Source of the DNA: Hormiphora californensis
Taxonomy: Eukaryota > Animalia > Ctenophora
Direction: 5' to 3'
Assembly (NCBI GenBank): GCA_020137815.1
Contig: CM035356.1
Coordinates: forward strand, 7,626,001-7,690,000
Length of the DNA stretch: 64,000 bases
Notes under the pieces: model-generated
The model's database searches: none
Seen by the model: only the letters and a program-made list of their open reading frames with translations
Told to the model about the DNA's origin: nothing
Made by a program: the position numbers and the translations under genes
Shown here: positions 1,633 to 46,654 of the stretch, piece by piece
Position numbering within the stretch: the first letter of the stretch is position 1
Layout: each line of letters begins with the position of its first letter

Positions 1633-1728
1633 CCTGTACTTGTTGCTACTAGGTTGAGATGATGATGAAGATCCTATATCAATGTTGAAAGATCTGATAG
1701 CACCTGATGAAACTGGATCTCTAGGCAT
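1633..1728 (-). CDS. Candidate alternative first coding exon, phase-0 tier (MPRDPVSSGAIRSFNIDIGSSSSSQPSSNKYR)
   Basis: ATG at 1728; 32 codons ending at consensus donor AGG|GTAAGT (phase 0); X-box 119 bp upstream. Confidence 0.55.
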
Positions 1729-1846
1729 GAATGTCACCGCTCGATGTGTAGAAGTGGAAGCAAATTTACTACTTGAAGAATTGAGCTCCCTGATCTTTAG
1801 AGCTATAAAAACTACCTCGACATTAATCATTTTAATGAAGGAGCAT

Positions 1847-1860
1847 GTTACTATGGCGAC
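1847..1860. promoter_or_regulatory. RFX X-box-like motif GTTACTATGGCGAC
   Basis: Matches GTHNYY-AT-RRNRAC; upstream of the 1728 ATG on the minus strand. Confidence 0.45.
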
Positions 1861-2070
1861 CAAGAAGCAGTGAAGCACGAAGGAGACAGGATCGAGAGGC
1901 AATTTTCAAATGAAATATGGCGTCAAAACCTACTACCGTGCAGATCACAGCTGCAGAGGTCTAATGACTATTCAAAGAGCAAGTACTACAAATTCAAATT
2001 AATTGTAAGACTTGACCAATATATAGATTTCGGTAATGTAGGGATATATTTTGGGTCCAGAATGAATCTA

Positions 2071-3090
2071 CAGTCGGACCCCGATTTAGTGGCATCCTCG
2101 GGGGAAAGAAATCCTGCCACTAAATCGGGGTGCCACTAAATCGGGGTGAGCCATATTTGGCCCATAAAAACCTATTTTATGCCCAAAATGCTATACTAAG
2201 ACTAAAGACACCTGTTATATGCAATATTCATGTATTGATGACATGATCATATCTAATTAGAAATAGAAAACTATCAAATAACTTTTTCAAAAAATTTGTG
2301 AAAAATTTTCTAAGTCATACCAGCCCGTCCAATTTGTGTTTCGAATCGGTGCAGCTTCCTGGATGTCCTGTCTAATTAGCAGGTTCGAAACGAACCGATA
2401 CGTGATACCATGCCGAATCGGTGCACCCTAAGCGGGTGAGGAAGTATCAAAATTTCAAAATAACATTTTCTCTCAAAATTTATGGGGAGCACCGATCAAA
2501 GCATTGACAATCGTACTGTAAAATTTTGCAAAAAAAAGTTTTAAAATTTTTTAAAGGTATACCAGCCACGTCCGAATCGTGTTTCGAATCGGTGCATCTT
2601 ATCGCATGTCTTGCTGCTAATTAGACGGTTCGGAACGAATCGAAACGTGATCCCCATCGAATCGAAATTTTGACGCTTGGTGAACTTATGATTCAATGGC
2701 CCCATGGGGATCACGTATCGGTTCGTTCCGAAATGTTAATTAGCAGCAGGACATGCGATAAGATTCACTGATTCGAAACACGATTTGGACGTGGCTGGTA
2801 TTCCTTTGAAAAATTTTCAAAAAATTTTCAAAAAAATTTTATTCTGAATAATGAGTTCAGAGCAAGAATTAAATAGGGAAGAAAATCGAAAAATACTGGG
2901 TTTGACCGGGAATTGAACCAGGGACCTCCAGAGAGACATGCTCGGAGCTATAAACCACTAAGCTACCAAACCCTACTTCCTTTTTCAAAAAAATTCACAA
3001 AAAAATTCAAAAAAATTTTTGGGGGAAAAAAATCCTGCCACTAAATCGGGGTGCCACTAAATCGGGGGCCACTAAATCGGGGTCCGACTG
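2071..3090. mobile_element. Non-autonomous Tc1/mariner-type TIR element (MITE), family A
   Basis: TIR CAGTCGGACCCCGATTTAGTGGC / GCCACTAAATCGGGGTCCGACTG; TA on the left, CA on the right (mutated TSD); subterminal CCACTAAATCGGGG repeats; internal inverted repeat ~2545-2820; no transposase ORF. Confidence 0.85.
2898..2973 (-). pseudogene. tRNA-like (tRNA-derived) cassette inside MITE A
   Basis: Minus strand GGGTTTGGTAGCTTAGTGG...GGTTCAATTCCCGGTCAAACCC: A box, B box, paired acceptor stem, downstream T-run; anticodon loop non-canonical. Confidence 0.65.
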
Positions 3091-3688
3091 CATCACCAAA
3101 ATTTGATACTTTCTAACAGCAAGATTTTAGAACAAACCCTCCGTTTTCCAAACCCCCTCACAATTACTTGTTGAGCACCCCCTAATACTCAACAATCACT
3201 TACTTGCCTAGCTAGACTGTGTGTAAAGGAGGGTTAGAACATAACAACCACTTACTGGGTTTGCGGGTCGAAGAGTTGTCAAGTTTTCCAGTTTAATATA
3301 CCCCACAACCCGTGCAATACTCGCTTTCCGCTGCAGCTTTGGTTGTACTTTCGCCATTTATCAAAATAGACGCAGTGCGAAATGAACGAGAACCGCAATT
3401 CAATCATTAAAAAGAAGATGAGCGGGATGAAGATGGAGAGAGATAGAGATAGAAAGATAGAGAGATAAGAGATAGATGGAGAGTGAAGGCTGGGAAAATG
3501 TTAAAGAGTAAGAAACTGCAGTATAATAGTGAGCAAGATAGATAGATACGGCTACCGACTACTTCGTTCATCATATTGGATATTGGAAGGAAAGTGCTTT
3601 GATGAAGAGATATGGGAGAAAGTGATATGTGTATTCACAAGAGATATAGGACAACTGCACAGCTGCAAAAAAGCTCACGTTTTCGACG

Positions 3689-3702
3689 GTTGCTATGGTT
3701 AC
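3689..3702. promoter_or_regulatory. RFX X-box motif (GTAACCATAGCAAC on minus strand)
   Basis: Exact match to GTHNYYATRRNAAC. Confidence 0.45.
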
Positions 3703-43331: not shown

Positions 43332-45787
43332 GTCGAGCTAGATTTGAACAGATATATAGATTCAAGATTCACAGATATAATATACTTTTGATATACAGAT
43401 AGGTGTTTATCAAACAAAATATGTAATAACAAAAAATATATAGTACGAAGTGTGTAACAAAGAGGAAAATGAAGACTTCAGACATCCGAAGACCGACAAA
43501 CTTGTCAGGGCAGTTGCCATTTAATAAACAACTTATTGACAAATGAGTAAAGCTGTAGAGAGGCCACCACAAAAACTGTGTTATTGCGTTGAATAACTAT
43601 AATAGGGGTGTTAGTTGTTACTCATTGAGTAATACTCAACACGCATCGCAACCGTGACGAGAATTCTAAAGAAGGTCCTATACTAGTTGAACTCAAACAA
43701 ACACCATGGGAGAAAATAGTGTAGTAGTTTGTTGGAATTCGTCCTTACGACAGATGGCTGTCAGTTGGCACCTTTTCCTGTTTTTATTGCCAGCTTCAAC
43801 TAGCTCTACCCTATGAAGTTATTCTAGTTCGGTACCAATTATCAATTCTGTGGAGGAGGATGACAGGACGTCGAAACGGCCAAGAAATAGCCTGCACAAG
43901 CATTCAATAATATTGTATACCGGAAACGCCTGACTGAAACACTGAAACAAGTATAAATTCCAAACAAAGTGGTGAAACCAAAAAGTGGAATTTCTAATTC
44001 AGATCGATATGTATGCAGAAGCCACTATTGATCACAATTGATACGCCTGATTTCAAAAGAACGGATGCATCCTCTGTATATTATTTTAGATCAAATAGTA
44101 GCAATCATTACATGCTTGAGGCATCTTACGCTACAGTTTCATTCTCTCTCTTTCTCCCCCACTCATGCTCTCTTTCTCTCCCCTCTTCCTATATCTATAG
44201 CTCCGATAATCAAGAGGCCGGACAGGATTTGAGGGTTGCATGGTGACACGCGATCACTCCATGGGGTACCTCAGAATATACTACTAGAGGCCCTGCATGT
44301 TATCAGTTGCAGCACATCATGTAGACGAATTCAGAGATAAATTACGCGAAATCATCCACGAGAAGTAGTGAGATAGATAGATAGAGAGAGAGAGAGAGAG
44401 AGAGAGAGAGAGAGAGAGATAGAGGGAGAGAGAGAGAGAGAGAGATCCATATCAAAGAGGGACAGAAATGAGAATCAGATAAATCAACCCACGTCACCTG
44501 ATATATCAGCTACCAATATCTAGTTATGATTAGCAAATGTTATACACATCTGCATCATGGAGACTACATAGTGATATGAAAGTTATCATAGACTTGATGG
44601 GAAGCCTCTGGAGAGATGGGGAGAGAGAGCTGCTTAAGAAAGAGGACCCTCGAGGGAGAAGGAGAGAAGGATAGCGGATTTAGAAAGAGAGACTTGGGGA
44701 GTCAGAGAGGCTTCAGAAAGAGGGAGAGAGTCTATGGGAAGAAGGAGGGAGGAAAGATACGAAGGGATAGGACTGTTCACCGGACGCTGTGTTGATAGGT
44801 TTTCCTGAGCTGGACTTCTAAGCAGGGAAAGCAAACAGGAACTAGTGAACTACATTAAATGATATGCTAGTGCTCTCTAAGTCCATTTTAATGATATATT
44901 GTTCTTCTCTCCAGTATAATATGTACAGTTATTAGTGCGAGTCAGTACGTGCAGTAATGAATTAATAACAGTAGCTGGAACTGCTTTCCACAGATCTGTG
45001 CAACTCGTACACCGGTCCTGTACTTACAAAACTTATGAAAATAACAGACAACTCTTATGAAAATTACAAACAGTAAGATGCTAGATGACCAATTAAATTT
45101 GTTGAAAGAATGGCATTTTCCACGGCTTTGAGAGACCAACTGTTTGAAGCTGCAATAACAAAATCTAACAACAATAATATATGCTTATTAATATCGCTCA
45201 CATATTCCACATAATGGAATAGTAGCAGCACAGATTGCATTTCCTGTTTGTCCAGTATTAGGACCAAATGAAACAAAAGAAGAGACTAGCAAATGAAATG
45301 GAACCTAAAAGTGAAAGTTGTACCTACTGATCGCACACAAGAAGTTCTTCCCCGTTGTAGGGGAGAGCACATGTCGTCTTCGCAGTTAAAAAGCTGAACT
45401 GTCATTCTGTTGTCTGTTTACTACAGGTCTGACAAGAACCACACAGTTGACAGTCGTACTTGAATTGCTCATACTTTTTTAAAAAACATGTGTTCCGTGC
45501 GAAGCGCAGTGTCAGAGACTCAGTCGTACAACACAAGTATGTCTGTCTGATGTATAAATTTTTGTACAATAGGTAGTAGGTACCCCACCCGCCCTGTTGC
45601 AAAGAACAACGACCCGCCGGGACCATGACTCAACAAAAATTTCTGTCCCTGGCTCTCCTTTAGAATTAGCTAAATCAACCCACGTCATCTGAGAGCATAT
45701 CAGCTGCCGATATAAATATCTAGTTATACCCCCGCCAACATCCACAGCCCCCCCCCCTAACCCCCGAATCCAACAATTAGCACATAC

Positions 45788-45967
45788 TTAATTGCTGCTC
45801 TGATCCACGCATCTTTAGTGTTTATCGGTAGTTTCCTAGCAACTGGTTTGGTAGCTGATGCTGCTGGTGACGGAGCTGTTGTTGTTCCTTCTGGTTCTGT
45901 TGTTGTTCCTTCTGGTTGAATTGTTATCACTGCAGCAGTACTGGATTCCTCTATCGTATTGAGGGTA
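45788..45967 (-). CDS. Variable coding exon, phase 2-2 (TLNTIEESS...PEGTTT x2...TKDAWIRAAIK)
   Basis: Acceptor CCCCTATCCTCAG|T; 180 nt open; donor AA|GTATGT; likely exon 2 of the 46654 start exon. Confidence 0.68.
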
Positions 45968-46414
45968 CTGAGGATAGGGGTGCAGAAGGGGTTAAAGACG
46001 TTCTTTCTTCAAGTTTCTTGAGGGTTTTTAGTGGAGTTGTATTATACATGTGATAAAAAAATACACAGTTTATTATGTGACTTGGCATCTCTCTCTAGAC
46101 CACTCCCATGTACATGGCGTTATACACATGAGAGGATAATTTTCAATTCGAAAATAATCGATTTGCTCATAGCCACATACTGCAATAATCTGGCAATGAA
46201 GCTGCTTTTCAAGATGGTCAGATTTTGAATAAAATATTGTACATGACGTGTCGACCATTAAAATAGCTTGGTAACGAAATAAACCCTTCCTTGCCAGCGC
46301 GATACCATTCAAATAGCACCCAAAAACATGTACATACATGACGTGACGACCATTCAAATAGCGTGCACTCATCCCCAACACCAACCCCAACCATCGTGCA
46401 CCCATCTACTCACA

Positions 46415-46492
46415 TGGGTAACGAAATTACCCCTAATGCATCACGTTTTAGCATCTCCGCAGTCCGCAAGGTAGGGGTAATTTCGTTACCCA
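46415..46492. repeat. Inverted repeat with 21-bp arms, related to the 30482-30498 terminus
   Basis: TGGGTAACGAAATTACCCCTA ... TAGGGGTAATTTCGTTACCCA. Confidence 0.85.
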
Positions 46493-46505
46493 GCTCTGCA
46501 CTTAC

Positions 46506-46654
46506 CTTGGGTTCCTCCGCGGCGAGGGAGATCGTTTTGGGGCAGGTTTGATTTCCAGGGGCACGGGTGTACTTTCCACGATAATGGGTGATGTTGCTTT
46601 TATACTGTTTTCTACCAGGGGCGAGATAAATACTGTTCCTGTACTACCGTTCAT
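46506..46654 (-). CDS. Variable first coding exon, phase 2 (MNGSTGTVFISPLVE...PKRSPSPRRNP)
   Basis: ATG 46654; 49 codons + 2 nt; donor AG|GTAAGT; acceptor-like CCTCTTGCAG ~21 nt upstream. Confidence 0.68.

Follow-up and report, generated by a model that had tools for sequence, protein, structure and literature searches.

A 64,000-nucleotide (nt) stretch of Hormiphora californensis DNA (GCA_020137815.1, contig CM035356.1, positions 7,626,001 to 7,690,000; here called the window) carries on its minus strand a cluster of about a dozen N-terminal coding exons, which are arranged in two tiers that differ in splice phase. The array likely represents the alternative starts of one ctenophore gene, the shared body of which is predicted to lie left of the window. 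Six to eight starts were counted in the upper tier and four or five in the lower tier. A many-starts architecture is, on the sequence, a reading that we hold with considerable confidence; the joint claim that the starts are in addition chosen by promoters is favoured with moderate confidence. What can be read from the DNA itself are the exon frames, the donor phases, the single entry phase of a common exon (the hub), ATGs behind stops and two conserved exons. The splice junctions are predictions from frames, donor phases and acceptors. Exons are named below by the position of their donor (Table 1).

The cluster had been proposed in an earlier note, and all 15 donors named there were found at their coordinates with their GT hexamers, as was the acceptor of the hub. 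Ten of the 11 donors that had been placed in phase 2 close open frames of 52-136 codons, the exception being 38973. The three placed in phase 0 (9684, 3970 and 1633) each close an ATG-led open frame. We added three further modules, 28828-28341, 11518 and 3256.

The hub had been described as an exon with a phase-2 acceptor and a phase-0 donor, and both its coordinates and its frame hold. Its acceptor ranks first among the 3680 minus-strand AGs that were scored, microsatellite contexts set aside. The exon is open on phase-2 entry only, entries in phase 0 or 1 run into stops. The upper-tier exons share one phase, which would be compatible with splicing to the hub acceptor downstream of them. A second hub for entering the 3970 exon in phase 2 might lie at 4420 or 4312, both weak candidates (scores −1.8 and 3.6). 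A large inverted repeat begins approximately 110 nt past the hub donor and might cause folding of the pre-mRNA.

Table 1. Predicted exons and candidate exons of the array, listed from right to left in the window (aa, amino acids; UTR, untranslated region).
Position	Strand	Feature	Details
46506-46675	-	First coding exon	5′ UTR acceptor 46675, ATG 46654, phase-2 donor GTAAGT
45788-45967	-	Internal exon, phase 2 in and out	Acceptor score 5.3; ends in aromatic-basic helix
43174-43331	-	First coding exon, 52 aa	Phase-2 donor GTAAGT, no phase-2 acceptor, score 19.0
38973-39123	-	Unconfirmed module	Open for 6 codons in phase 2 and 50 codons in phase 0
37830-38014	-	Exon with phase 0 in, phase 2 out, no ATG	Score 10.9, moderate support, upstream partner needed
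36230-36366	-	Short module	Strong acceptor 36366, ATG 36297 (22 aa), weak donor GTATGA, moderate support
31316-31464	-	First coding exon	ATG 31464, phase-2 donor GTGAGT
30815-31075	-	Coding exon with phase-2 donor	Orthologue with same donor phase; acceptor position uncertain
28721-28828	-	New first coding exon	UTR acceptor 28881, ATG 28828, weak phase-0 donor
28341-28546	-	New exon, phase 0 in, phase 2 out, 68 codons	Score 12.5
25541-25927	-	Upper-tier exon	Phase-2 donor GTAAGT, ATG 25809, score 23.5 over 127 codons
20778-21031	-	First coding exon	UTR acceptor 21031, then stops, ATG 21010, phase-2 donor GTAAGT
16679-17037	-	First coding exon, 119 aa	Orthologue in related animal
16329-16404	-	Hub exon, 76 nt	Top acceptor, branch site CTAAC, phase-0 donor GTGAGT
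11518-11586	-	New short first exon, 23 aa	Phase-0 donor, weak support
9684-10084	-	Lower-tier module	Acceptor 10084, ATG 9926, phase-0 donor
3970-4401	-	First exon, 144 aa	Seven R-[RK]-x-[ST] sites, predicted terminal helix, phase-0 donor
3256-3357	-	New first exon, 34 aa	UTR acceptor 3489, stops just before ATG, phase-0 donor GTAAGT
1633-1830	-	Candidate	Strong phase-0 donor GTAAGT, weakly protein-like frame (score 3.1)

The exons had originally been picked by eye with an acknowledged risk of selection bias; therefore all donors were scanned blind to phase. The first scan scored the amino acid composition of frames ending at donors, for GTRAGT donors and then for a wider donor set. In the region 16405-47500 of the minus strand, the limits of which were picked with the finding already known, 6 of 17 GTRAGT donors end protein-like frames, with 0/0/6 in phases 0/1/2, whereas none of the 42 other GTRAGT donors passed (Fisher p=2.7e-4). 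The probability that all six fall into phase 2 by chance is (1/3)^6=0.0014. With the wider set, phases were 0/1/9 among 50 donors, against 6 hits among 137 control donors, and the single phase-1 hit shares its frame with 37830. The donor of 46506, which is the best donor on the minus strand, lies just below the composition cut-off (score 7.2). One of the six blind hits, 46414, was absent from the earlier note; it is reached by another frame across the 46506 exon and was taken as a chance or minor donor. Open length alone gave a modest signal: for the 115 donors located upstream of the hub on the minus strand, frames of at least 50 codons are distributed 11/8/18 over the phases, compared with 6/5/4 for 104 donors in the plus-strand control. 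A second scan used a full donor matrix and ATG-led frames of at least 30 codons. For the lower tier it yielded 5/1/0, comprising four independent phase-0 frames, versus 0/1/1 in the plus-strand control.

A profile built from six modules was searched against 1.84 billion representatives, and both hits are genomic read-throughs from a related animal. The first, P0001, with its cluster mate P0003, is identical to the 16679 exon at 101 of 118 positions between the shared ATG and the donor, but only at 8-9 of 20 further on. P0001 and P0003 differ from each other at none of the exon columns and at 7 of 34 post-donor columns. The second, P0002, shares 86 of 99 positions with the 30815 exon and ends at the stop created by the phase-2 donor; its intron part is frameshifted relative to the window. 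Thus, in the orthologues of two exons, as judged from sequence, the frame and the phase-2 donor are kept.

If all exons were chained constitutively into one long disordered N-terminus, each would have to be enterable from its neighbour. The earlier note had argued that several modules start at their own ATG, and this holds for 46506, 43174, 20778 and 16679, which have stops before the ATG and lack a usable phase-2 acceptor, so that a single constitutive chain fails; 3256 likewise has stops just before its ATG and no compatible acceptor. The start of 16679 is conserved in the orthologue: the ATG is the same, with 15 residues identical. Short chains do exist, as indicated by phase-2 acceptors at 45967 and 31510 and a weak one at 25927. 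Altogether, we consider one long chain very improbable. The argument for own starts does not extend to 37830 and 30815, which lack a usable ATG (30815 has two ATGs only, 5-6 codons before the donor), and the 25541 frame looks coding from its weak phase-2 acceptor 25927, upstream of its ATG, and may also be internal. For these reasons some units would be internal exons of multi-exon modules: 45788, 37830, 30815, 28341 and perhaps 25541 appear to belong to two- or three-exon units. Two such units had been predicted, 31464+31075 and 46654+45967. The frames of both are compatible, but the acceptor at 31075 is very poor (score −9.5). Exon 45788 is likely the second exon of the 46654 unit, in which in-frame stops separate the acceptor at 46675 from the ATG; similarly, 28341 is likely the second exon of the 28828 unit.

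As a phase-2 coding module, 38973 was rejected, since it is open for only 6 codons in phase 2, against 50 in phase 0, and has no ATG in either frame. At most it is an uncertain partner of the acceptor at 38014. On the minus strand between 39000 and 39600 lie broken open frames with the 38973 donor at their tail, and no Pfam match was obtained for 39146-39577. By a motif, these frames look like the 3′ end of a long interspersed nuclear element reverse transcriptase. The 38973 donor may end an exapted non-coding exon.

In the lower tier, no phase-0 acceptor of an exon scores above −0.4. The ends of 3970 and 3256 are homologous (E=4e-6; Z=7.8, the best of 136 pairs). Directly after the 3970 donor, a 37-nt tandem repeat with its flank (3754-3923, minus strand) carries strong GT donors at 3886, 3855 and 3754 (ranks 2, 3 and 7), which are possible ends of UTR exons for the 3256 module or alternative donors. 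Ahead of the ATG of 9684, the frame at 9927-10084 (minus strand) looks coding from the phase-1 acceptor 10084; no convincing phase-1 donor with an ATG to feed this acceptor was found. At 1345-1511 (minus strand) a 55-codon frame with a poor composition score runs to a strong phase-2 donor, GTAAGA, and could be a further exon or a chance frame.

The encoded peptides are predicted to be mostly disordered. A Pfam scan of the modules and the hub (15 minus-strand frames) found no family and no immunoglobulin (Ig) domain, and disorder-prone residues make up 43-78% of the modules. Hydropathy analysis of 19 peptides detected no 17-residue window above 1.5; two peptides have a 9-residue patch near 2.1-2.2. 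For both modules folded with AlphaFold, 3970 and 16679, the low-confidence models show coil for the most part and place a helix at the 3′ end; in 16679 this helix extends into the intron read-through. Of 16 modules, 10 carry within their final 16 residues an aromatic-basic-aliphatic motif, which was defined post hoc after the sequences had been inspected; shuffling gave a mean of 0.35 and a maximum of 4. The final 15 residues are richer in aromatic residues (20/240 vs 28/876, p=0.001; last 12, p=0.11). We liken these terminal helices to calmodulin-binding or anchoring helices, for which PDB searches with the 3256 peptide and with a module-end profile gave no support, as they returned no meaningful match. 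A docking role of the helices is about as likely as not.

The modules had been described as not being obvious tandem paralogues of each other. They are indeed mostly unalignable, and only one of 136 pairs, the homologous ends of 3970 and 3256, is clearly related and departs from that description. The ends of 20778 and 31316 look alike in an end alignment, with a pair score that is not significant. A search for DNA-level duplication among the module neighbourhoods returned only matches of 12-40 nt.

How a start would be chosen was approached from the upstream sequences. Acceptors within 250 nt upstream of 13 module starts outscore those of 1122 ATGs (median 4.5 vs 1.7, p=0.001), and often in-frame stops lie between acceptor and ATG. 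This favours an alternative in which start choice is a splicing decision on one or a few long pre-mRNAs, in which spliced-leader trans-splicing, or cis-splicing from one shared non-coding leader, selects the acceptor that forms the 5′ end of otherwise the same isoforms. In Hormiphora californensis, at least 56% of Iso-Seq reads carry a spliced leader, and parallel nested genes are frequent (PMC8527503); the first point bears on this alternative, the second on the one with separate genes discussed below. It also agrees with a leader that no shared promoter motif was found: in a comparison that covered exact k-mers, the sharing of 7-9-mers among the 13 starts is no higher in upstream windows of 600 and 1000 nt than in random windows. 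On the other side, leader addition is expected after ordinary promoters too, and candidate local non-coding exons with GTGAGT donors lie upstream of two modules, one ending at 46751 (75 nt upstream of the 46506 exon, from which a 75-nt intron would separate it) and one ending at 10492, upstream of 9684. A transcript entering at an upstream module must skip all later modules in either case. A search for a spliced-leader gene or a leader 3′ motif in the window found none, which is neutral between the two readings. We consider a pure splicing decision unlikely.

We keep separate promoters as the working model, in which each unit would be transcribed from its own promoter, often via a small non-coding exon or a spliced-leader acceptor shortly before the ATG. 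Upper-tier units, six to eight in number and consisting of one or two, perhaps three exons each, would use the hub as their phase-2 target; from the hub, as from the four or five lower-tier first exons, splicing would proceed in phase 0 to one common acceptor left of the window. The outcome would be two isoform classes, long with the hub and short without it, a division also known from PDE4D. Every isoform would begin with a disordered, cytoplasmic tail bearing kinase-type sites and, immediately ahead of the junction, a short amphipathic helix of aromatic-basic character. Most likely, this helix would dock a partner, for example calmodulin or an anchoring protein, and docking would set the location or regulation of one shared cytoplasm-facing signalling enzyme or channel across cell types. 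That the body is a cyclic-nucleotide or calcium signalling protein is an assumption, and a doubtful one.

The exons might instead come from two or more nested or neighbouring genes or include several decayed relics, with the hub serving the nearest modules only. The nested genes of Hormiphora speak for this, as do the weakness of several modules, the failure of 38973 and the lack of an orthologue for four of the six modules in the first profile. However, the 15 minus-strand frames contain no known domain, an acceptor-led scan found no clear terminal coding exon between the modules, and one phase per tier together with similar terminal helices is unexpected for unrelated genes. We judge this alternative as quite unlikely, somewhat more so than a pure splicing decision.

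Besides the post hoc choice of the helix motif, the poor 31075 acceptor, the missing promoter motif and the points just named, several observations weigh against a single many-starts gene. In the upper tier the second scan gave a weaker signal than the first, with phases of 4/2/9 vs 5/1/5 on the plus strand, and at its three thresholds (4/2/9, 4/2/5 and 2/0/3) phase 2 is not clearly singled out; the scoring matrices are generic and were not trained on ctenophores. Upper-tier support is weak for 36230 and 37830, and in the lower tier for 11518 and 1633. The excess of R-[RK]-x-[ST] sites stems from two modules only, and no CpG islands were found at the modules. A homopolymer-rich stretch at approximately 13000-14500 (runs make up about 280 of 500 bases, with a median of 11) is probably poor-quality sequence and may hide exons. 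Moreover, our searches turned up no protein in which a module is joined to the hub or to a constant region: the six-module profile returned its two read-throughs and no joined protein, a nine-module profile had 0 hits among 7990 candidates in proteins of 136-2000 aa, and the hub as query in proteins of 73-2000 aa retrieved one candidate and none that scored. Exact look-up of read-through frames matched 0 of 10, and the constant body was not found via peptide terms in the literature. A profile search for further hidden modules yielded no new frame under E=0.75. Matches from a metagenome scan, three loci at 28-31% identity, were dropped as chance.

The modules are mostly disordered and hydrophilic, and we therefore liken the gene to PDE4D and plectin rather than to protocadherins and UGT1. 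Among the analogues proposed earlier, PDE4 and plectin fit; the paralogous folded domains and shared promoter motif that mark the type of protocadherins, UGT1A and sDscam were looked for and not found. One feature of the PDE4D/plectin type, several unique coding first exons with start codons of their own, is seen here: at least five exons have an ATG behind in-frame stops and no compatible acceptor. For PDE4D, a passage describes unique promoters and N-terminal regions for each isoform, and long, short and super-short classes (PMC5342582). As far as that passage goes, the predicted gene resembles PDE4D in having many unique N-terminal regions on one body, two entry levels that lead to long and short forms, and tails tied to targeting and kinase regulation. 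It differs in that no sequence likeness was found (the modules and the hub gave no Pfam match, UCR1/UCR2 and the PDEase catalytic domain included), several units have two exons, a similar helix ends most tails and the host uses spliced leaders; promoters and body are predicted only. In the plectin, NOS1 and glucocorticoid receptor genes, non-paralogous alternative first exons join one shared next exon. All three have been named as variable-first-exon genes (PMC1885805). In contrast to them, the starts proposed here are coding, occupy 45 kb or more of a compact genome and, in one tier only, would funnel through a 25-codon hub.

The same paper characterizes protocadherins, UGT1A and GCNT2 by large paralogous exons of near-equal length, encoding a signal peptide and a folded domain, and by a conserved upstream motif (PMC1885805). 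Here, the exons encode 22-144 aa, are disordered and mostly unalignable, and share no upstream k-mer. Tandem paralogues of similar length with a folded domain were not found, with one homologous pair in 136 and no Pfam match, and neither was a signal peptide or an extracellular or lumenal variable part, by hydropathy alone in the 19 peptides. The cassettes of sDscam are duplicated extracellular Ig domains, whereas the modules have a disordered composition and no Ig family match. In chelicerate sDscam, alternative promoters are reported to drive multi-exon 5′ cassettes and so to create an array of isoforms, with trans-splicing reported as well (PMC9258826); the array proposed here would likewise be an invertebrate isoform array, with some multi-exon units. 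The array is a probable further case of a known gene layout, notable for its size, its two tiers, the helix-tipped tails and its host, and the earlier description as an independent N-terminal diversification system was an overstatement. In open-access main texts no such ctenophore gene was found; annotation files or supplements may already hold these isoforms.

Elsewhere in the window, a long intron-free frame on the plus strand (62463-63998) encodes a cysteine-rich receptor with LDLa repeats and runs off the window. Receptors with LDLa repeats are its best matches, at 72% and 50% identity in Pleurobrachia bachei and at 31% in Mnemiopsis leidyi, and full-length relatives carry PF00057 and PF00001 (seven-transmembrane). 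These matches agree with the ctenophore host that the earlier note had thought probable and point to a likely pleurobrachiid. Large near-perfect inverted repeats, with arms of at most 742 nt that are 94-100% complementary, are located at 14802-16217, 41460-43029, 6033-6998, 50192-53511 and 61045-62480 and are probably foldback elements. A unit of 16-17 nt recurs as short tandem arrays at 2115-2148, 3036-3083 and 51810-51931 and is likely part of a dispersed repeat.

Large alternative-start arrays have been described mainly in vertebrates and arthropods. The most far-reaching version of the present one would be a two-tier library of at least a dozen docking-helix tails for one signalling protein, evolved independently in a ctenophore and picked by trans-splicing a spliced leader to one or another acceptor along a single long transcript, without a promoter array. 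We regard this version as rather improbable; if it were true, neurons, comb cells and muscle would each have their own isoform. The locus offers a test of whether promoters or spliced leaders pick the start of a ctenophore gene, and of whether its isoforms mark cell types.

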